The notes beneath the pieces were generated by a model, which worked only from the letters and a program-made list of their open reading frames with translations, ran no database searches and was not told where the DNA came from. A stretch of 32,182 nt of DNA from a virus (Duplodnaviria; Heunggongvirae; Uroviricota; Caudoviricetes): the IMG/VR virus record IMGVR_UViG_2870464427_000001. One strand, written 5' to 3'. A program made the position numbers and the translations under genes. Shown here piece after piece: positions 305-13,975 of this stretch. Numbering within the stretch: the stretch's first letter is position 1; each line of letters opens with the position of its first letter.

Positions 305-451
305 GTTTCTGCCTACCAATAAACCCACACTATGTGGTTGTCTCTGTTAAAATCCCGCCGTATTGACATAAATGCGCCATTGGTGGACACTTTCCGAGCC
401 GTAGCAAAATCTACGGCCGGGATTAGCCTCCTGAATAACACGATGGCGCAT

Positions 452-471
452 ACCGCGTTAGCGGTTTTTTT
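452..471 (+). terminator. rho-independent terminator-like hairpin
   Basis: accgc/gcggt 5-bp stem with gtta loop followed by a 7-T run; a second hairpin (gccgtag..ctacggc) lies at about 403-422. Confidence 0.4.
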
Positions 472-633
472 ATGCGTAGAGCACTGTTACGCCCAAATTA
501 TGGTGGGTCGTACAGGGGCGGAGAAATCCGCGCCGGTTCGTCATTGTGTCCGGTAAGGCTAACCCTGTACGGCTCACCACCATTTGATTAGCCTCGAATG
601 GCGGTGATAGTTCCATATACTGGAGATATCACA

Positions 634-4074: not shown

Positions 4075-4374
4075 TTAGACATGGAACGCTACTCGCTTTC
4101 CTGTAGGAAGCTCAACATCCAGGCTTAATTTGCCTCCCATAGCTTCAACGTAACGCTTTAATGTCGCCAGCTTTAAATCATTTCCGCGCTGCTCCAGCTT
4201 TGTTACTGCTGGCTGGCTTATACCCATCGCCTCAGCAACCTGTTTTTGTGATAACTGGAGTTCTTCACGCATCATCTGCAAGCCGACCTCAAGAATCATC
4301 TCATCTGCCATTTCTTTAATTCGCGCCTGGCTTTCAGGTGAACGGCTGGCAATCACCTCATCTAATGTTCTCAT
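4075..4374 (-). CDS. higA: HigA-like antitoxin (XRE-family HTH)
   Basis: 99 aa with HTH LSQKQVAEAMGISQPAVTKLEQ; start overlaps the upstream toxin stop (TAATG at 4372-4376). Confidence 0.75.
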   Translation of the reverse strand: MRTLDEVIASRSPESQARIKEMADEMILEVGLQMMREELQLSQKQVAEAMGISQPAVTKLEQRGNDLKLATLKRYVEAMGGKLSLDVELPTGKRVAFHV

Positions 4375-4727
4375 TACTTGCTCTCCAGTGTGTTCAGATG
4401 TGCTGCAAACTCATCCTCAGCTATACGCACCAGTTTTTCATAAAACCGTTTATCGTTACTTTTGTCTCCTGCACAAAGAACGATGGCCCGGCGAATCGGA
4501 TCGAACGCATAAAAGGCTCTTATCGGACGGCCAGAAAACTGAACGCGAAGCTCTTTCATATTTTTGTACCGAGAACCTTTTACGGTATCGGCATATGGCC
4601 TGGGTAACTCAGGTCCGTAAACCTGTAGCTTTTTCAAATCAGCCAAAACCTTTTCCTGAAGAGCGTCTTCTTGCTCATTTAGCCAGTCGTCAAATCGCTG
4701 GCTAAAAAGTACCGTCCACATGCTCAA
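4374..4727 (-). CDS. higB: HigB-like toxin (RelE/ParE superfamily, Gp49-like)
   Basis: 117 aa; toxin-first gene order and translational coupling typical of HigBA; sequence (RFDDWL .. KELRVQFSGRPIRAFYAFDPIRRAIVLCAGDKSNDKRFYEKLVRIAEDEF) matches the family as recalled. Confidence 0.75.
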   Translation of the reverse strand: MSMWTVLFSQRFDDWLNEQEDALQEKVLADLKKLQVYGPELPRPYADTVKGSRYKNMKELRVQFSGRPIRAFYAFDPIRRAIVLCAGDKSNDKRFYEKLVRIAEDEFAAHLNTLESK

Positions 4728-5929: not shown

Positions 5930-6130
5930 TGCGTAAGTTAAATAAAGAAAGTCTTAATAAAAGAAAGTGATTTTGCATTTATTTGTTTAGTGCATCTATT
6001 ATAAAAAACCATTTGCATATACATATCAAAACTGTGGATAACTTTATTAGCCGATGCCTGTGAAGGCGATATTTTTGCTGTGTTCAGGTTTAGAGAAAAT
6101 TAATTTAGATTGTTTTTTGAACAGATATTT
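5930..6130. other. origin-like AT-rich region downstream of repA (oriR candidate)
   Basis: About 200 bp of strongly AT-rich sequence starting roughly 50 bp after the repA stop, no ORF. The position matches IncFII oriR, which lies downstream of repA1. Confidence 0.5.
6033..6041 (-). promoter_or_regulatory. DnaA box (perfect TTATCCACA on minus strand)
   Basis: Plus strand tgtggataa at 6033-6041 is the reverse complement of the consensus DnaA box TTATCCACA, inside the AT-rich region. Confidence 0.5.
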
Positions 6131-6182
6131 TATTGCGACGTAGATAATCCTCCGGTAAAACCGGATTCATCATTCAGGTGGG

Positions 6183-7031
6183 TTAATGTTGGAGTGATTT
6201 CCAGGTCTTTCTTAACCTGTTATAACGCTGCTCAACGAGGGATCGTAAATATGCAAGGTCAGCACCAGGATACATGCCATCAGCAAATTCCTGGCTAACC
6301 TCTCTAGTGATTTGATGACGAAGTTCGGCCTCTCCCTTTTCCTGAACAAGACGCGCAGCTCTCTCCGCTGCTTTCTGTTTTGCCTTTATCTCTCTGGCTG
6401 TCTTCCTCTGACGCCATACATTCTCCATCTGCTCCTGAATAACAATACGCTTATAATCAGCCTCCGTTATCGCTTTTTTAAGCCGTTCGCTATTCTTCGC
6501 ATTGAAGTAATTAAGTTTCTGGCTAACCGCACGTCTCCATGCTTGTTCAGTAATACCAACGGTTTCCAGCAGTTGATCACGAATCTCTATTTTCGCTGGC
6601 CAATACTGTTTATTCACCCGATCCCAGCGACGTTCATAATCAATAAAACCTAACGCTTTCAGTTGCGACAACGCCCTTGTACAGCGTGTTATAGACTTGT
6701 TCCCAGCTTCGGATACGGTAGACAGGCCGCAAAAATCAGCCAACGCCTCAGCACTGGCCAGAACCCGCTTAGAAATGATGTTTACATGGTGCAAAATCGC
6801 AGCAATCACAGCATTAATCGCCCGACGACGATGCTCGTTTATCCGGCGCTTCCGCTCTGACGGCTGATTAACGTAGAACGCAACCTCACACGTAAGATCA
6901 CGACCATTAATGCGCTGTAAAGCATCAGATAACACTAGCGGCAGCTTGTGCGTATGGTGCTTTGGAGGCTGGAACTCCGGCGACAAATTACAAACGTAAG
7001 CGGAACGTAGAGACGGCATTGGTCTATCCAT
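6183..7031 (-). CDS. repA: IncFII-family replication initiator RepA (RepA1-like)
   Basis: 283 aa from the ATG at 7031. Segment RRRAINAVIAAILHHVNIISKRVLASAEALADFCGLSTVSEAGNKSITRCTRALSQLKALGFIDYE aligns with R100/R1 RepA1 as recalled. The in-frame upstream extension to 7163 runs through leader stem-loops and is rejected as the start. Confidence 0.8.
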   Translation of the reverse strand: MDRPMPSLRSAYVCNLSPEFQPPKHHTHKLPLVLSDALQRINGRDLTCEVAFYVNQPSERKRRINEHRRRAINAVIAAILHHVNIISKRVLASAEALADFCGLSTVSEAGNKSITRCTRALSQLKALGFIDYERRWDRVNKQYWPAKIEIRDQLLETVGITEQAWRRAVSQKLNYFNAKNSERLKKAITEADYKRIVIQEQMENVWRQRKTAREIKAKQKAAERAARLVQEKGEAELRHQITREVSQEFADGMYPGADLAYLRSLVEQRYNRLRKTWKSLQH

Positions 7032-7046
7032 ATGTTCGCTCTTGCG

Positions 7047-7117
7047 TCCACGGAAAACCAACGTATAATGGGAGTTGTCGAGGCGCCCATGGATTGTTGT
7101 TGTTGGTTTTCCGTGGA
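7047..7117. promoter_or_regulatory. 16-bp perfect inverted repeat in the repA leader, 15 nt upstream of the repA start
   Basis: tccacggaaaaccaac (7047-7062) and gttggttttccgtgga (7102-7117) with a 39-nt spacer; could sequester the repA RBS region. Confidence 0.45.
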
Positions 7118-7158
7118 TGTCGCAAGAAGCCCGCAGATTTATCTGCGGGCTTTTTGTT
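7076..7158 (+). ncRNA. candidate CopA-like antisense RNA opposite the repA leader
   Basis: Plus-strand promoter-like -35 TTGCGT (7043-7048) and -10 TATAAT (7064-7069), then about 80 nt ending in a terminator (gcccgcaga / tctgcgggc stem 7128-7149 plus T-run 7150-7158). Size and position resemble CopA of IncFII replicons. Boundaries are inferred. Confidence 0.35.
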
Positions 7159-7344
7159 TCCATATCTGGTCAGTTTCCAACCAGACACCCACAATCATAA
7201 CCACGTTACGTGGTTTTAAGAGAACTCTACCACAACACTTTCGGTCATGCACGAAGTCTCTCACTGATCGAACGATAATCCACCAGTAAAAGGATCTAAA
7301 TTGGATCTCGTTTTGCGAGCATCATACTACTGGCCTAACTCCAG

Positions 7345-7899
7345 TCAATGATTCCCAGCCGGAAACCTGCGGTAAAGCGTGGATAAGGTAACATCGAAGA
7401 TAATCGCTATCCGCTTACGTGAAACACCATTCGCAATAAGTCTTCCGATCTGTTCCCATTGCTCTGGTGCCAGCTTTGAGCGGCGTCCTCCTATCCTGCC
7501 GTTAGCCCTTGCCACCGCCAATCCTGCACGCGTTCTTTCAAGCATATTTTCCCGCTCCATCTCTGCGACTGCACTCAGCATCGTGTAGGCAAAGCGGCCA
7601 ATTGAAGTGCTAATTTTTATCCCTTCCGTAATCGAAATAAACTCAATGTTGTTTGATAAAAAATAGTTAAGAAAATCAACAAGATGAATCAGGGAACGCC
7701 CCATTCGGTCCAGCTTCCAGACAATAACCGTATCGCCCGGCCGTAACACCTTAAGTAGCTTATCAAGTCCTGGTCGTTTTGATTTAGCACCGGATATTTT
7801 ATCTTCAAAAATCCGGTCACATCCTAAACTCCTGAGCGCCTCCAGTTGTAATTCCAAATTCTGGTCAAAAGTTGACACCCTCGCATAACCATATTGCAT
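7345..7899 (-). CDS. serine-recombinase DNA invertase (Gin/Cin/Pin/Hin family)
   Basis: 184 aa; YARVSTFDQ catalytic-serine motif, VWKLDRMGRS, GRIGGRR, C-terminal HTH; aligns closely with Mu Gin as recalled. Confidence 0.9.
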   Translation of the reverse strand: MQYGYARVSTFDQNLELQLEALRSLGCDRIFEDKISGAKSKRPGLDKLLKVLRPGDTVIVWKLDRMGRSLIHLVDFLNYFLSNNIEFISITEGIKISTSIGRFAYTMLSAVAEMERENMLERTRAGLAVARANGRIGGRRSKLAPEQWEQIGRLIANGVSRKRIAIIFDVTLSTLYRRFPAGNH

Positions 7900-7963
7900 A
7901 CTTTCTAAACCGCGATTGTTGCTAAAAGCGGGAAAAAATATCGTTCAGACGACACAGAGGCAA

Positions 7964-7989
7964 TTCGCAAAAACCTCGGTTTGCAGGAA
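7964..7989 (+). other. gix/cix-like inversion crossover site (left)
   Basis: ttcgcaaaaacctcggtttgcaggaa resembles the gix consensus TTATCCAAAACCTCGGTTTACAGGAA. A 25-bp stretch (7973-7997) is identical to the reverse complement of 10902-10926. Confidence 0.7.
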
Positions 7990-8877
7990 ACGGTAAACAA
8001 GGCTGGTAACGCCGTTCAGCGTTCCGGTGATAAAATGACCGGAGAACTGAAAATTGGCACGGTGAATGCGCTGCGAATTTTCAATGATGCCTTCGGTCTT
8101 ATTTTCCGTCGTTCAGAAGATTTTCTTCATTTCATTCCGACGGCTGAAGGACAAGGCGAAAACGGTGATATCGGCCCATTAAGGCCATTCGCTATAAATC
8201 TGAGAACAGGTGCTATATCTGTCAGCCACGGGGCCAAAATTGAAGGAGGTCTAGCTATTGGAGCTACTGATAACGCACTGGGTGAAAACTCCATTGTTCT
8301 GGGAGATAACGACACCGGATTTAGGCAAGATGGAGATGGTATTATTAGCTTCTATTCAAATGGTTCGCGCATCGGACATATTGATGAGTTAGGATTACAT
8401 ATTTATAAAGATATTGAATCTAATGGCAGCAATTTTAGATTAAAAGGTAATTACCGCCACCACATTACATTCGCCAACGAAGACGGAAGTATTCGTATGT
8501 TTTTGTGGAAAGATAAAGATGGTGATGGTGTTCATATTAATAATGGTTCAAGCGGTGGCGGTGATTTCGTTTTTAAAACAGATGGGGGATTTGCGCTGGG
8601 AAGTGGTGCGCAAGTTGCGTCTAATGGCGATATTTATGGTTCAGTGTGGGAAAACAACTGGTTAAGCACATGGCTGCATAATCATGTCGTTCGGGATATT
8701 CGTCTTGGCAGCATTGAATATAAAAACGTATGGCGCGACTCCGGCTTTGGCGATGCGTCAGGTTATGTTTTAACAGCCGCAATTAACAGCAATGCGGATG
8801 ATATTGTCGACACTGTTGCCAGAAGGCCAATTCAGAAATTGATTGGGGGAATATGGTATAACGTGGGGAGTGTTTAA
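7981..8877 (+). CDS. alternative tail-fibre C-terminal cassette (silent in this orientation; no own start)
   Basis: 298-aa ORF opening exactly at the crossover site (QETVNKAG..). Its C-terminus ([18 protein letters not shown]) parallels the active fibre C-terminus (ARPIQYCINGTWYNAGSI). Confidence 0.65.
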
Positions 8878-8878
8878 G

Positions 8879-9406
8879 ATGATGCACCTGAAAAATATTA
8901 AGGCCGGGAATCCGAAAACACCGGAACAATACCAGCTAACTAAAAAAGCGGGCGTGGTATGGCTCTTTTGTGAAGATGGCAAAAACTGGTATGAGGAACA
9001 AAAGAATTTTCAGCCAGACACCATAAAAATTGCTTACGATGAGAACAACATCATCGTTGCTGTCAGTAAAGACGTTTCAACTATTAATCCTGAAGGGCTA
9101 AGCATAGTTGAAGTTCCTGATATTACGGCAAATCGTCGCGCAGACAATAACGGAAAATGGATGTTTCTGGATGGTAAAGTAGTAAAGAGGGAATATACAG
9201 AACAGGAACTGCAACAACAGGCCGAATCACAAAAGGCCGCATTGCTTTCCGAAGCTGAATCAGTCATCCAGCCGCTGGAACGCGCTGTCAGGCTGAATAT
9301 GGCAACAGACGAGGAACGCACACGACTGGAAGCATGGGAACGCTACAGTGTTCTGGTCAGCCGTGTGGATACGGCAAATCCTGAATGGCCACAAAAGCCT
9401 GAATAA
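8879..9406 (+). CDS. tail-fibre assembly protein (alternative, U'-like)
   Basis: ATG at 8879 directly after the cassette stop (8875-8877); [14 protein letters not shown].. is paralogous to the 9435..9968 product. Confidence 0.75.
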
Positions 9407-9411
9407 AAATT

Positions 9412-9431
9412 AAGGCCCGATATCGGGCCTT
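9412..9431. terminator. perfect hairpin between the convergent tail-fibre assembly genes
   Basis: aaggcccg-atat-cgggcctt at the centre of the invertible segment. Confidence 0.45.
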
Positions 9432-9434
9432 CTC

Positions 9435-9968
9435 TCATTCTGGTTGTTCGGGAAACGTTACTGGCAGGCTGGAAGTGTCTGTAGATTCGACTTTCTGCGC
9501 AAAGAGCATCCACTCTGTTAATTTTTGTTTATTCTCGTCGGAAATGATGCCCAGCCGTAGCTGTGAGTCCCATAGCAGGGTTTTATCCCTGACAAGTTGC
9601 AACAGGCTTTGCTTTTCATTCTCTGCCTGCTGCCTCTGTTCCTCCTCGGTATAAGTTCGCTTTATCACTACGCCATCTTTGAACATCCATTTACCCGAAA
9701 TATCAGCCCGGCGATTTGCTGTAATATCAGGAACCTCAACGACGCTTGCGCCTTCTGGATTAATTGCTGAAACATCCTTTTCAATACAAATAATAACGCC
9801 GTTGTGGTCATAGACCATTTTCAACGTATCAGTCTGGAAATTCTTTTGTTCCTCATACCAGTTTTTTCCATCCTCTGAATAAAGCCATTTGATGTTAAAT
9901 TGTTTCGTTAGCTGGTACTGCTCCACTGTTTTAGGATTACCAGCGGTAATGTTTTTTAAGTGCATCAT
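9435..9968 (-). CDS. tail-fibre assembly protein (U/G-like)
   Basis: 177 aa, MMHLKNITAGNPKT..; immediately downstream of the tail-fibre gene. Confidence 0.8.
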   Translation of the reverse strand: MMHLKNITAGNPKTVEQYQLTKQFNIKWLYSEDGKNWYEEQKNFQTDTLKMVYDHNGVIICIEKDVSAINPEGASVVEVPDITANRRADISGKWMFKDGVVIKRTYTEEEQRQQAENEKQSLLQLVRDKTLLWDSQLRLGIISDENKQKLTEWMLFAQKVESTDTSSLPVTFPEQPE

Positions 9969-9970
9969 AA

Positions 9971-12247
9971 TTAAATACTTCCCGCGTTATACCAAGTCCC
10001 ATTAATGCAATACTGAATTGGCCTTGCCTGAGTTGTATCAATTAATTCGTCACGGTTCCCGTTAACTGAACCCGTAACGACATAACCTGACCTGTCAGAC
10101 CAGCCGGGACCATTCCATGTCTGAACAGATGACAGACCGCCAAGGCGAATACCTGTAATAAACCTTGAGTTACATTCTGCCTGCGTGTATGCACCAACAT
10201 CTCCCGCAGAGGGTTTGCGGGTCGTGGTGTAAAACTCTGACCAGTCAGCCTCAAATCCGTAACCATCACGCGCTGAACGATAATAAATACCGCCGTTCTT
10301 ATAATTCACACGGAACTGTACGGCAGGGCAACTCCCCTCGCTCATATTGAAATGGAGGATTAATGTCGATGCGCCACCAATATTTGCTTGATAGACCCCG
10401 CTATTCCAGTTCCAGCCAACAGCTTTATCATTTCCGACAGTGCTTCCTGTTTTCCCTAAAGCAAATGCAGGCTGCTGGTTTTTCGTGTTGTAGTCACGTC
10501 GCCAGCCAGGTAAATACCCTGAACCGTGGTTAATATATATAAATTGCGCATTCGTAGTGCCACCACCGCTAGAGGTACTCGGTGTGGTTATACGAATGGT
10601 CATGGCGCCTTTATTGCCCATAACTTCAATAACGCAACCCGCAAGGTGAATAAGTCCACATCCGGTGTCAGTAATAATTTTATTATTGCCGTATGACCAT
10701 GAGCATTTACACATCCAGTATGGATGATTGAAGGCCCACTGAGATTCCAGCCATTCAATAAATTGCGCCGTCGTCCAGTTTCCTGCACCTGTGCTAATAG
10801 AGCCATGAAAAGAGCGGCAAGCACCTATTGTTTGCGTAAATTTATCTTTGTTTGGAATATCTGCGCCGTTCTGGTTTTTCTGCAATGCGCCAGCAGCCTG
10901 ATTTACCGTTTCCTGCAAACCGAGGTATTCGATAACGGCGGAAACGGTCGCTTGAGCCAGAATATCCCGCCCGACTTTTGTCAGAGTTGCCAGGCTGGCA
11001 GTGTCATTCCCCGTAAAATACGGAAACCTGTCTGCCGCAGTAGCAAGCCCGGCCAGCGCCGTCAGGGTGGCATCTTTCGGTTGCTTACCCGCAAGCGCGT
11101 TAGTCATGGTGGTCGCAAAATTCGGGTCGTTGCCCAACGCCGCAGCCAGCTCGTTTAGCGTATTCAGTGCGTCAGGCGACGAGTCCACGAGGGCAGCGAT
11201 CGCAGCCATAACATAAGCCGTGCTTGCGATCTGAGTATTGTTAGTACCTTTTGGCGCAGTTGGTGTTGTTGGTGTTCCGCTCAGCGCCGGACTGTTCAGG
11301 GGCGCTTTCTTGTTCGTTTCATCCATTACCACCTTTACAGCTTTTGATGTCGCGGCCAGTGTTTCAGACGTGCTGTTGGTGGCGCTACTGAGCTGAACAA
11401 TCCCTTTTCGCGCTGTGGTAGCGTCCTGTGCGGTGTATTTAGCGTTAGCAAGGTCATATGCTGCCTTTACCGCCTTTGGCGTTGCTGCCAGCGTCTCAGA
11501 ATCGCTGTTAGTTGCGCTACTAAGCTGAACAATCCCTTTTCGCGCCGTGGTAGCGTCCTGTGCGGTGTATTTAGCGTTAGCCAGGTCATATGCTGCCTTA
11601 ACAGCCTTAGGCGTCGCAGCAAGCGTTTCAGACGTGCTATTGGTGGCGCTGCTAAGTTGAACAAAGCCTTTTGAGGTTAAAGTTGCATCAGGATGATTAC
11701 GTGATTGCTCATGTTTCACAATGGCTTGCTTAAGCCGCTTTGCTGAAACAGCAAGGGAATCATCTGTACCTGCATCAATTTCTTGTTCATTAGCAAATCT
11801 TGCAACCCCAACAACAGTTTCGGTCGCGGGAGGATTAATAAACTCAATATCACCAAATGTAATATTTTTAGTATCAAGAGTCTTAATTGCTATGTCACTT
11901 GATATTAAAGCAATAGTAGATGATGCTTTATTTATTATTGCTTGTTCTTGCGAGTATACAGCAAACAACGTTCCCTTATTTGTATACAATCCTATTGTAT
12001 GGACAACATACTCATCTTTACTATCATCCTTCGCCGTTACATGAATTGTATCAGGGGAAACAACTTTGCCACCTATTGTGGTAAGTCGTTTTATTTCGTC
12101 TGTTATATTTGTTTGTGAGGTTGACGTGACATAATATCTACTACCTAAACCAACAGAAACAATCTCAACTTTATTTGTTCCTGTTTTGTTGGCATTAACC
12201 AACTCCTGACGCCCGGCGTCAGTCATCGTAAATAATAATTTACTCAC
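9971..12247 (-). CDS. tail-fibre protein (P2 H / Mu S-like constant N-terminal part fused to a variable C-terminal cassette)
   Basis: 758 aa; long stretches match P2 gpH as recalled (DATLTSKGF..QLSSATNSTSETLAATPKAVKAAYDLANAKYTAQDATTARKG .. [13 protein letters not shown]); crossover site at codons 442-449. Confidence 0.9.
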   Translation of the reverse strand: MSKLLFTMTDAGRQELVNANKTGTNKVEIVSVGLGSRYYVTSTSQTNITDEIKRLTTIGGKVVSPDTIHVTAKDDSKDEYVVHTIGLYTNKGTLFAVYSQEQAIINKASSTIALISSDIAIKTLDTKNITFGDIEFINPPATETVVGVARFANEQEIDAGTDDSLAVSAKRLKQAIVKHEQSRNHPDATLTSKGFVQLSSATNSTSETLAATPKAVKAAYDLANAKYTAQDATTARKGIVQLSSATNSDSETLAATPKAVKAAYDLANAKYTAQDATTARKGIVQLSSATNSTSETLAATSKAVKVVMDETNKKAPLNSPALSGTPTTPTAPKGTNNTQIASTAYVMAAIAALVDSSPDALNTLNELAAALGNDPNFATTMTNALAGKQPKDATLTALAGLATAADRFPYFTGNDTASLATLTKVGRDILAQATVSAVIEYLGLQETVNQAAGALQKNQNGADIPNKDKFTQTIGACRSFHGSISTGAGNWTTAQFIEWLESQWAFNHPYWMCKCSWSYGNNKIITDTGCGLIHLAGCVIEVMGNKGAMTIRITTPSTSSGGGTTNAQFIYINHGSGYLPGWRRDYNTKNQQPAFALGKTGSTVGNDKAVGWNWNSGVYQANIGGASTLILHFNMSEGSCPAVQFRVNYKNGGIYYRSARDGYGFEADWSEFYTTTRKPSAGDVGAYTQAECNSRFITGIRLGGLSSVQTWNGPGWSDRSGYVVTGSVNGNRDELIDTTQARPIQYCINGTWYNAGSI
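10910..10935 (-). other. gix/cix-like inversion crossover site (right, inside the tail-fibre gene)
   Basis: Minus strand reads ttatcgaatacctcggtttgcaggaa (23/26 to the gix consensus), inverted relative to the left site. Confidence 0.7.
11320..11680 (-). repeat. in-frame tandem repeat (about 129 bp unit, roughly 2.7 copies) encoding phage-fibre repeats
   Basis: Near-identical DNA blocks visible directly; encode the repeated peptide KGIVQLSSATNS.SETLAATPKAVKAAYDLANAKYTAQDATTAR. Confidence 0.7.
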
Positions 12248-12277
12248 GCTTAATTCCTTGAATTAACAAATTGCGAA

Positions 12278-12859
12278 TTAGCACTCGCCAATTAATCGTA
12301 CATAGGACACCGGCTGACAAGCACCAACAATACCAACACCACCAGAAACATTGGCAGCTTGCGAAAATGTAAATAATGTTCTTGCCGACTTTGCGCTCTT
12401 GATACTTCTTAACGTATCTTCCAACATCTCTTTCGAAGGAACGGCACCATCAAAAGAGTTAATCGAAGCAACAATTGAGGCTGTATATGGTTCGCCAGGT
12501 GGTGATGTTTCAAACCATTCTGTTATGTTTACCTCTCCACCCAAGCTATTTACTACATCTTCAACCGCTGCCCTTGTACCCTTTATTCGCTTTGTTCGTA
12601 TTATTGATTTAAAAACAGAACGCTTTAACGATACAGGCCAACTATCCCTCCATGTATCAGCATTCCATTGCCAGGCTAAATGATCGAGAACAACTGAGTC
12701 CAGGTTATCAACAACGCTATATATTTCTGTCTTATATATTAAATTGTTAATTGCTTGTAGTTCATCATCGATAGCTTTCGACATAGCTATCACGTTGGGA
12801 TCTCTAGCTAAGTTAGGAGGTAAAACATCCAACAAGCTAACATTAAAGATATCAGCCAT
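12278..12859 (-). CDS. baseplate/tail-fibre attachment protein (P2 gpI / Mu gp48-like)
   Basis: 193 aa; LAWQWNADTWRDSWP .. NITEWFETSPPG parallels P2 gpI motifs (LAWAFSVDRWDEKWP .. NVTEWWENSDPPG). Confidence 0.7.
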   Translation of the reverse strand: MADIFNVSLLDVLPPNLARDPNVIAMSKAIDDELQAINNLIYKTEIYSVVDNLDSVVLDHLAWQWNADTWRDSWPVSLKRSVFKSIIRTKRIKGTRAAVEDVVNSLGGEVNITEWFETSPPGEPYTASIVASINSFDGAVPSKEMLEDTLRSIKSAKSARTLFTFSQAANVSGGVGIVGACQPVSYVRLIGEC

Positions 12860-13975
12860 CCTCTAACCCCGCATACTGGCAATTTACATTTCTCTCTCTG
12901 GCGACCTGCGTCTCTCCAACCACAGTAAATACAGGACTTGATATTTCTAATCTTTTAGCCCCGGCATTTTTTAAACGTTGAATAATTTCATCTGGATTTA
13001 TATCTCTTCCCATAACCGAACGTTGCCATTGTTTATACTCATCAATAGCTTTCTCAACCTCACTTTGAATTAATGTTGTTCTGTTTTTGTCCGATGAGTT
13101 AATCCAGTATTTAATTATTATATCGTATTCAATGCTCTCTGGTTTCTTAACAAGAACTTTATCTGTGAATGGTCGAATATTAGTTGCAGAGAGAACGCTA
13201 TTTATCTGCTCCAATAGTTCATCAGAAGGTATATCTCCGTTCTCTAACAAAGAACGGATTTCTACAGTTCCGGGCGATGGTGTATATACATTCACATCTT
13301 TTATATTCTGATTGGCTGTTCTTGTCCAATATTTATAAGAATCCTCCGGCCCTGCTGTAGACAGTTTTTCCGGCGACAGTTTTATTCTTTCAGCATAATT
13401 ATCATCTGACTCTGTATCAGCACCAGAATTAGATGTTGTTAGATTCCTTACGCTGGAAACATACGGCAACGGAGTCACCAACTCATTTATTTGCCCTGGT
13501 AAAAAGCCATTCCCCGATAAACCAGGTATAACAGCATATCCTGAGACTGTACCAACTGTTTTCCCAGCAGGTATTTCCAACAAAACATCTGTTTGGAAAA
13601 TAACACCATTTCCAGTTGAAACTTGAGTGCCAGAAGGTATTGTATATATCCCGATAATTTTGTTGACAGATTAAACTCAAATGTAGTCAAGGCAGATTGA
13701 GCTTCCAGCCTAGGCGTATCCGTCAGATAGCCTATATGATCGAGATATTCACCCCCACCATATGTAAGAAGGTTTTGTTTTGCAGAAAAATCGATAGCTT
13801 TTCTTTGCTGTATAATAATCTCACACAATGACAAGATGAATAATCTACGTGGATCAGCAGGTGCTAATGTTTCACCTGTTATACTCTCAAAAGCCCTGAT
13901 TGAACGAGTTGTTATATCAGTCGGGTTAGAATCTGCGAAAGTAATATCTGGCAAACCACCGCGCGGCAACGTCAT
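12852..13975 (-). pseudogene. baseplate J-like protein (P2 gpJ / Mu gp47-like) interrupted by a single-base frameshift
   Basis: Two overlapping ORFs (13487..13975 and 12852..13583). The upstream frame turns to junk after ..TTFEFNLS while the downstream frame reads good protein from 13670. One extra A in the A4 run (plus-strand T-run 13658-13661) would give one roughly 375-aa protein. Confidence 0.6.

Follow-up and report, generated by a model that had tools for sequence, protein, structure and literature searches.

Phage Mu and phage P1 provide the closest described counterparts of the locus reported here, a tail-fibre gene with an invertible end in a 32,182-nucleotide DNA of the Caudoviricetes (IMG/VR record IMGVR_UViG_2870464427_000001; hereafter the window, by which we mean this whole stretch). 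The window belongs to a ~48-kb Escherichia coli phage-plasmid whose RepA is of the IncFII family and whose baseplate is P2-like. In Mu, the switch is the G segment with its invertase Gin, and G(-) particles, which carry S' and U', do not take K-12 as a host but infect, among others, Citrobacter freundii, E. coli C and Shigella sonnei. In P1, the switch is the C segment, which is served by the invertase Cin; the segment measures 4.2 kb with 0.6-kb inverted repeats, a size that fits the coordinates of the P1 record. On phage-plasmids, tail-fibre inversion regions have been documented for P1, D6 and pYU39_89, and they are the most divergent module among the D6-like phage-plasmids (PMC6799933). 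The nucleophile of Gin is Ser9, and the substitution M114V renders Gin independent of Fis (PMC3575834). In the related invertase Hin, residues Q151, R154 and L155 of helix 1 of the DNA-binding domain are a conserved feature of DNA invertases alone, not shared by resolvases, and are proposed to contact Fis, and K47, which is “always a lysine” in 15 aligned invertases, forms with K/R48 and K/R51 a basic patch on helix B that faces the enhancer DNA (PMC3798978).

We consider it highly probable that the window carries a host-range switch of the Mu G-segment or P1 C-segment type on its ~48-kb phage-plasmid. Every sequence-level feature of this switch family that could be tested was present. The crossover sites, the anatomy of the locus, the in-frame fusion, the intact invertase gene and the occurrence of both orientations in near-identical plasmids are direct observations.

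Crossover sites, fibre cassettes and assembly genes

An exact 25-bp inverted repeat had been described in the original prediction, which was made from the DNA alone, and it was found as described: ACCTCGGTTTGCAGGAAACGGTAAA forms the left arm, and its reverse complement forms the right arm inside the fibre open reading frame (ORF; Table 1). With up to 3 mismatches allowed, the repeat matches only these 2 places in the 32,182-base window, against an expectation of 0.00 from 100 dinucleotide-preserving shuffles, and at lower identity it extends to 50 nucleotides (nt) at 82% (7970–8019 and 10880–10929). The placement of the right arm in codons 442–449 of the fibre gene was correct to within a partial codon, the repeat running from the second base of codon 441 to the second base of codon 449.

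The resemblance of both sites to gix was also borne out (Table 1). Read outward from the segment, the left site is TTCCTGCAAACC-GA-GGTTTTTGCGAA (the reverse of 7964–7989) and the right site is TTCCTGCAAACC-GA-GGTATTCGATAA, compared with TTCCTGTAAACC-GA-GGTTTTGGATAA for Mu gix; the Mu site was taken from the annotated G-segment boundaries in NC_000929, and the P1 cix sites were taken from NC_005856. The two 26-bp sites are inversely oriented, each around a 2-bp core, and the non-palindromic GA core is the same in both, which is a requirement for inversion. The outer half of the left site adjoins the invertase, and the outer half of the right site differs from the outer half of P1 cixR at 1 position. 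Position 10935, at which the original prediction ended the locus, is the outer end of the right 26-bp site. The invertible unit is 7978–10921, that is to say, 2,944 bp. When the window was searched for further crossover sites, with the repeat at up to 3 mismatches and with the AAACCNNGGT core, just these two sites were returned. With only two AAACCNNGGT-core sites in the window, the locus is therefore a simple two-state switch, and a multiple-inversion system of the kind of p15B Min or the shufflons was ruled out, as there are 2 sites and 2 cassettes only.

The fibre ORF (9971–12247, minus strand) encodes 758 amino acids (aa) from a GTG start that lies 7 nt after AAGGA. Its constant N-terminal part (Sc) includes a shaft encoded by a 132-nt sequence repeated three times in tandem at 11332–11727 (100/88/61% identity), which gives three 44-aa Phage_fiber_2 repeats. 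The length of the fibre gene varies among relatives from 2,235 to 2,388 nt (~744–795 aa), a variation that might come from differences in repeat number. NCBIfam returned no matches for the fibre parts.

Beyond Sc, the segment had been predicted to hold two divergent C-terminal cassettes, each with its own assembly gene, and a Caudo_TAP gene indeed follows each cassette (Table 1). The silent cassette (ORF 7981–8877) has no start codon of its own in its context and would be expressed only after inversion. In-silico inversion of 7978–10921 produced an uninterrupted fibre of 741 aa, the first 449 aa of which are those of the 758-aa fibre; residues 443–449 (GLQETVN) are encoded within the segment and are the same in both orientations. 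The 442 constant codons were thus fused in frame to the other cassette, as expected from the claim that inversion swaps the receptor-binding end of the fibre, and the U-type gene became the chaperone gene behind the new C-terminus.

Between the two assembly proteins, of which one is U-like and the other U'-like, identity is 56%. The U-type chaperone matches U at 85% in P1 and at 83% in Mu, and for the U'-type chaperone the identity to U' is 96.6% in Mu and 94.9% in P1. The silent and expressed tips can be aligned only at their ends, over ~35 aa at the start (39%) and 67 aa at the finish (42%). Long imperfect inverted repeats (I1–I3) are present in the segment because the assembly proteins are 56% alike and the fibre ends are partly alignable. 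The comparison of the two cassettes with known fibre C-termini, which had been proposed for predicting receptor specificity, gave close phage relatives for one tip only. The expressed tip (residues 450–758) resembles P1 Sv' (90.6% aa identity) and Mu S'v (85.5%), whereas the best phage match of the silent tip is 46% (the Mu-like Yersinia phages vB_YpM_3/23), too distant for a transfer of specificity; assignment of a receptor to the silent tip by homology was therefore dropped. The silent tip is 67% identical to that of phiP27 over its first 125 aa only, and only its ends align with Mu S or P1 S. Since the central ~200 aa of the two tips are unrelated, the two orientations are likely to use different receptors.

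The convergent assembly genes are separated by a G+C-rich hairpin (Table 1), which is terminator-like and has a T-run on the minus strand only. Termination behind the chaperone gene may therefore be stronger with the segment as it lies now than with it inverted, and such orientation-dependent termination could alter read-through toward the co-directional invertase gene.

The invertase and its candidate enhancer

The adjacent invertase named in the original prediction was confirmed as an intact ORF of the Gin type. Its start lies 64 bp beyond the left repeat arm, with the 5' end facing the segment, and the protein comprises a Resolvase domain (residues 3–135, E = 4e-44) and an HTH_7 domain (residues 138–181, E = 3e-13) according to Pfam. 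Its top matches in the PDB are structures of Gin (3uj3, E = 1.9e-60; 4m6f, E = 4.9e-59; both gapless over residues 2–181), and it matches PHROG 125, “DNA invertase”, with E = 2e-79; NCBIfam gave sub-threshold matches only. Ser9 is present in the motif YARVST, and Met114 is present in the motif AEMERE. Residues Q150, R153 and L154 (WEQIGRLI) correspond to Hin Q151, R154 and L155, in a helix-1 register set by alignment with Hin in PDB entry 1hcr (query 141–182 to chain 4–45, E = 3e-6).

Gin, Cin and the Gin-like invertase of P2-like prophages are mutually 72–82% identical (Gin and Cin, 77%), and the nearest invertases outside the 48-kb family are “pin” of Salmonella phage SJ46 (86.7%) and the invertase of Escherichia phage Eeyore (80.9%, both at the aa level). 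With 55% identity to Gin and Cin and 81–87% to the SJ46 and Eeyore proteins, the invertase stands, by its sequence, on a branch of the DNA-invertase subclass that is distinct yet has other members.

In the P1 record, nt 19–90 of cin are marked as the enhancer, and we designate the corresponding stretch of the window's invertase gene as a candidate recombinational enhancer (Table 1). This stretch contains two Fis-like 15-mers, GTGTCAACTTTTGAC at gene nt 22–36 (7864–7878) and GTTTAGGATGTGACC at gene nt 71–85 (7815–7829), each with an A/T-rich centre between a G at -7 and a C at +7. The genes gin and cin and those of three other invertases have equivalent 15-mers at matching positions. The proximal 15-mer is centred ~105 bp from the left crossover, and the corresponding spacing to the enhancer in the Hin system is ~100 bp (PMC3798978). 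All sequence features of the Fis-dependent subclass that were tested were found, except for the helix-B lysine discussed below, with the enhancer present as a candidate only; the invertase would be expected to depend on Fis and the enhancer. Upstream of the invertase, a weak promoter candidate (TTGCCT-15 nt-GATATT) was noted by eye.

In the mechanism that we propose, we infer catalysis by the window's own invertase, its enhancer dependence, the rate of switching and the receptors. Invertase dimers would bind the two gix-like sites and then synapse them, probably at an enhancer that is occupied by Fis and lies within the 5' end of the invertase gene, ~105 bp from the left site. The DNA would be cut at the GA core via Ser9, half of the tetramer would rotate by 180 degrees, and religation would leave the segment inverted. 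In the present orientation, the element would make the 758-aa fibre with a tip like P1 S' and Mu S' and the U'-type chaperone; after inversion, it would make the 741-aa fibre with a different, uncharacterised tip and the U-type chaperone. Given these two fibre isoforms, the virions released by a lysogen population would be of two kinds that differ in receptor specificity.

Segment orientation in relatives and competing explanations

Both orientations of the element exist in nature, as established at the population level. The E. coli plasmid CP099296.1 (48,056 bp) is collinear with the window (98.9% identity; 99.0% over 6000–13500), and the segment of CP057727.1, also 48,056 bp, is opposite relative to both flanks. 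The two plasmids are 98–99% identical to the window and differ from each other only by the inversion: alignment gave three blocks, each at least 99.9% identical, the middle one of which (2,957 bp) runs the opposite way, and neighbouring blocks share 33–36 bp at their ends, within the repeat. CP057727.1 is annotated with a 734-aa fibre, which is the in-silico inverted isoform read from Met8. In three relatives (L002, L005 and L006), the silent position holds homologues of the cassette that is expressed in the window.

The outer half-sites keep to their flanks in all six relatives, the inverted isomer included, GGTTTTTGCGAA standing with the invertase and GGTATTCGATAA with Sc. By contrast, the inner half-site is polymorphic at position 7 (TTCCTG[C/T]AAACC; L001–L006), and either variant occurs on either side. 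Mobile inner halves and flank-fixed outer halves are consistent with exchange at the core. A tie between the C/T polymorphism and cassette type was considered and rejected; the two are not consistently linked, and the crossover is therefore mapped no finer than the ~33–36-bp overlap.

The same segment, with both cassettes and both sites, occurs at 93.9% nucleotide identity in P2-like E. coli prophages, where it stands beside a Gin-like invertase, and parts of the segment match 1,902 of 5,426 complete E. coli genomes. This recurrence shows that the module is common and portable. One such locus (L012; NZ_CP027219.1, 1348028–1352785) lies in a P2-like prophage and aligns to window 7970–11544; its invertase is 82% identical to Gin and 55% to that of the window. 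With the segment at 93.9% and the invertase at 55%, the two thus appear to have been exchanged independently.

Several points weigh against an active switch of the Mu and P1 type: (i) Asp46 (codon 7762–7764, minus strand) stands where Hin K47 and Gin K46 sit, so that the invariant helix-B lysine is missing; the patch D46-K47-..-K50 (PGLDKLLK) is basic at 2 of its 3 positions, and Asp46 is present in 6 of 6 family members, compared with lysine in Gin, Cin, Kp4867-2, mEpX1 and 503046; (ii) the invertase is only 54.5–55.2% identical to Gin, Cin and the Gin-like P2-prophage invertase; (iii) the Fis-like 15-mers overlap the conserved codons of RVST.DQN and GC..IFED, from which their own conservation is inseparable, and their conservation is therefore not independent evidence for an enhancer; (iv) a consensus sigma-70 scan between the left site and the invertase ATG returned no promoter; (v) the evidence for flipping is at the population level and comes from other plasmids of the family; (vi) the database isomers could in principle reflect a rare RecA event or an assembler's pick from a mixed population, although the latter would still support flipping; and (vii) the baseplate J gene carries a frameshift (described below), which, if real, would leave this copy making no virions or tails and the switch without a phenotype.

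Some of these points would fit a fossil or locked switch, in which the invertase or the enhancer is dead in this copy or lineage, the fibre is fixed in its P1 S'-like form and the silent cassette is decaying. The replacement of an otherwise invariant, enhancer-contacting lysine, the result of the promoter scan and the baseplate J frameshift, which suggests that the copy may be degenerating, all point in this direction. However, the invertase ORF is intact and retains all the catalytic and Fis-contact residues that were checked, the silent cassette and its chaperone gene are intact ORFs, and the cassette fuses in frame. Moreover, Asp46 is found in all six relatives, including the 99.9%-identical orientation isomers, and is therefore compatible with recent inversion. 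A fossil switch is improbable in our judgement.

Further doubt concerns the agent of the inversion. The orientation difference might have come from RecA-dependent recombination between the short repeats or from misassembly, with the recombinase unrelated to it; only two isomeric assemblies were verified in detail, the exchange is mapped to the ~33–36-bp overlap and not to the GA core, and the homology extends to 50 nt at 82%. We give this very little credence: a 25-bp exact repeat is very short for RecA, the repeats fall on a 26-bp site that differs little from Mu gix, a Gin-type invertase is encoded 64 bp off and is placed relative to the segment as it is in Mu, and the same architecture recurs in Mu, P1, the P2-like prophages and the 48-kb family. 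Plasmid small serine recombinases are often resolvases, and the gene lies on a plasmid replicon between repA (6183–7163) and the fibre module; it might therefore be a plasmid multimer resolvase, the repeats being a conserved coding motif of both cassettes. The gamma-delta and Tn3 resolvases are also significant PDB matches (E ~1e-30 to 1e-26), but Gin scored ~100 bits above any resolvase (207 vs 108 bits for the best), the invertase-specific Q, R and L of helix 1 in the DNA-binding domain are present, and the window's only two sites are inverted, not direct, with no three-subsite res-like array seen. This makes a resolvase the least probable of the explanations considered.

Within a Mu- and P1-type switch, the differences noted above can be taken further: the invertase would form a separate branch that lacks the enhancer-touching helix-B lysine and acts on the same gix-type sites with an altered or relaxed requirement for Fis and the enhancer, and the silent tip would be without a characterised relative (at most 46% identity to any sequenced phage fibre). 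We put this forward tentatively and think it rather unlikely to be correct. If it is correct, the second host range of a widespread phage-plasmid family would be set by this uncharacterised tip.

Genomic setting and comparison with known systems

Table 1. Coordinates of the switch and of other features in the window (a dot marks features without a strand).
Feature	Position	Strand	Basis or remark
DNA invertase, 184 aa, small serine recombinase of the Gin/Cin/Hin subclass	7345–7899	-	Pfam, PDB, PHROG
Candidate recombinational enhancer	7810–7881	-	Putative; invertase gene nt 19–90, position as in the P1 cin enhancer
Left 26-bp gix-like site	7964–7989	.	22/26 vs Mu gix; core TC at 7976–7977 (GA on the other strand)
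Left arm of the 25-bp inverted repeat	7973–7997	.	Exact match
Silent C-terminus, Sv' type, 299 codons to stop	7978–8877	+	PHROG 454 tail fibre, E = 8.5e-85; Pfam gp37_trimer, E = 1.3e-5
Assembly gene of silent cassette, U type, 175 aa	8879–9406	+	Pfam Caudo_TAP, E = 9e-37
Palindromic G+C-rich hairpin	9412–9431	.	Perfect palindrome AAGGCCCGATATCGGGCCTT, between convergent assembly genes
Assembly gene of expressed cassette, U' type, 177 aa	9435–9968	-	Pfam Caudo_TAP, E = 1.5e-35
Expressed variable C-terminus Sv, residues 443–758	9971–10921	-	Pfam gp37_C, E = 7e-5 (weak match)
Right arm of the 25-bp inverted repeat	10902–10926	.	Exact match, inside fibre ORF
Right 26-bp gix-like site	10910–10935	.	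23/26 vs Mu gix; core GA at 10922–10923, Leu442 codon
Constant fibre N-terminus Sc, residues 1–442	10922–12247	-	Pfam Phage_fiber_2, E = 1.3e-60, 3 stretches
Tail protein I	12278–12859	-	Pfam Tail_P2_I; precedes fibre gene in late operon
repA, IncFII family	6183–7163	-	Pfam, E = 1e-43; directly beside invertase
Toxin, Gp49-like/HigB-type	4374–4727	-	Pfam Gp49, E = 6e-23
Antitoxin-like HTH_3 protein	4075–4374	-	Paired with Gp49-like toxin gene
isrK Hfq-binding RNA	398–471	+	Rfam, 68 bits
C4 antisense RNA	496–584	+	Rfam, 70.8 bits
ORF6N + Phage_pRha protein, 380 aa	822–1964	+	Just downstream of isrK/C4 RNAs

The family of the window consists of ~46–50-kb non-mobilizable Escherichia plasmids. When the first 25 kb of the window were used as the query, 526 plasmid records were matched, 22 of them with at least 80% query coverage. 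Infectious virions of the family exist: the Yersinia phages vB_YpM_39/41/44 match the backbone at 97.6–98.5%, and virions of the 48-kb family were isolated on Yersinia pestis. Two names were considered and dropped, pSLy3 as a group name, which denotes a ~100-kb member of the SSU5 supergroup, and Yersinia phage HQ103 as a relative, which is a 32-kb peduovirus. Near-identical sequences are already public, annotated as recombinase, tail fibre and assembly proteins, and a literature search found no paper on the switch of the 48-kb family.

The fibre gene is the last structural gene of a minus-strand late operon. The order along the minus strand is tail protein I, fibre, Caudo_TAP gene, hairpin, the opposite-strand Caudo_TAP gene and silent cassette, left repeat arm, invertase and repA. 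Upstream in this operon, the baseplate J/gp47 gene (12852–13975, minus strand) has 1,124 nt compared with 1,125 nt in NZ_CP032086.1; a GGGG run at gene nt ~323 (near 13653) is short by one G, which results in two ORFs, 13487–13975 and 12852–13583. Either the missing G is an error of sequencing in a homopolymer, or the frameshift is real.

On the other side of the invertase, the 5' end of the long repA ORF contains a 16-nt perfect inverted repeat (7047–7062/7102–7117) and a terminator-like hairpin (7123–7156). Some relatives annotate a shorter repA of 837 nt; the structures at 7047–7156 may therefore lie upstream of the real repA start, and they may be part of copy-number control. The gene pair at 4075–4727 probably serves in plasmid addiction; in relatives, its members are annotated as a toxin of the RelE/ParE family and an HTH protein. 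The isrK and C4 RNAs, together with the ORF at 822–1964, look like an immunity module of the P1/P7 immI type (c4-icd-ant). At gathering thresholds, Rfam gave nothing in 7300–12300, and the C4 and isrK RNAs at 398–584 were its sole matches; a tRNA search found none.

On the reading that we prefer, a Mu-type host-range switch is carried by a common family of ~48-kb E. coli/Escherichia phage-plasmids. Two isoforms of the fibre and a 2.9-kb block of variable orientation must therefore be taken into account in host-range prediction, phage typing and assembly comparison for this family. The locus follows the textbook arrangement of Mu G and P1 C and poses no new mechanistic question; what is mildly unusual is limited to the divergent, Asp46-bearing lineage of the invertase and to the second tip, which is uncharacterised.

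The Mu G segment (Sc-[Sv U U' S'v]-gin) has the same gene order and orientation as the locus in the window, with the 5' end of the invertase gene toward the segment and its transcription directed away. The crossover sites agree with gix at 22–23 of 26 positions, share its GA core and lie, like gix, in a ..LGLQETVN.. coding motif, and the Mu proteins U' (96.6%), S'v (85.5%) and U (83%) are close to those of the window. The segment measures ~3.06 kb between the annotated boundaries in Mu, compared with 2.94 kb in the window. The two systems differ in that (i) the window's invertase is 54.5% identical to Gin and has Asp46 instead of Lys46; (ii) the constant part of the window's fibre has 442 aa, compared with ~169 aa in Mu, and an unrelated N-terminus with a P2-like baseplate attachment and Phage_fiber_2 repeats; (iii) the window's second tip does not resemble Mu S, with which it can be aligned at the ends only; and (iv) the window's element is a plasmid prophage, whereas Mu is a transposable phage.

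In this last respect, the window is closer to the C segment of P1, P7 and D6 (Cin, cixL/cixR), which is likewise located on a plasmid prophage. Identity to P1 is 90.6% for the expressed tip (Sv'), 85% for U and 95% for U', and the outer half of the right site is 1 position off cixR. By contrast, cin is transcribed toward its segment, with its 3' end overlapping cixL, whereas the window's invertase gene is transcribed away; the cix core is TT/AA, whereas that of the window is GA; and the window's invertase is 55% identical to Cin. The Salmonella H segment, inverted by Hin, serves flagellar phase variation. Hin belongs to the same invertase subclass, with the same 26-bp site architecture and Fis-contact residues Q, R and L, a comparison confined to the Hin DNA-binding domain, but it flips a promoter together with its own gene, hin lying within the segment, and not coding cassettes.

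At the level of the invertase, the window most resembles, outside its own 48-kb family, Salmonella phage SJ46 (pin, 86.7%) and Escherichia phage Eeyore (80.9%). In SJ46, pin is annotated beside a tail-fibre gene; the backbones of these phages differ from that of the window, SJ46 being a 103-kb P1-like phage-plasmid. Nearly the same segment is carried by P2-like (Peduoviridae) E. coli prophages, for example in strain 2015C-3163, which have 93.9% nucleotide identity over the segment, the same gix-like sites and a P2-type tail protein I/baseplate J context. They differ from the window in their invertase, which is 82% identical to Gin and 55% to the window's, and in being chromosomal and not plasmid-borne. 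The presence of the same 2.9-kb module beside a different invertase in these prophages marks the gix junction as a portable joint for tip exchange.

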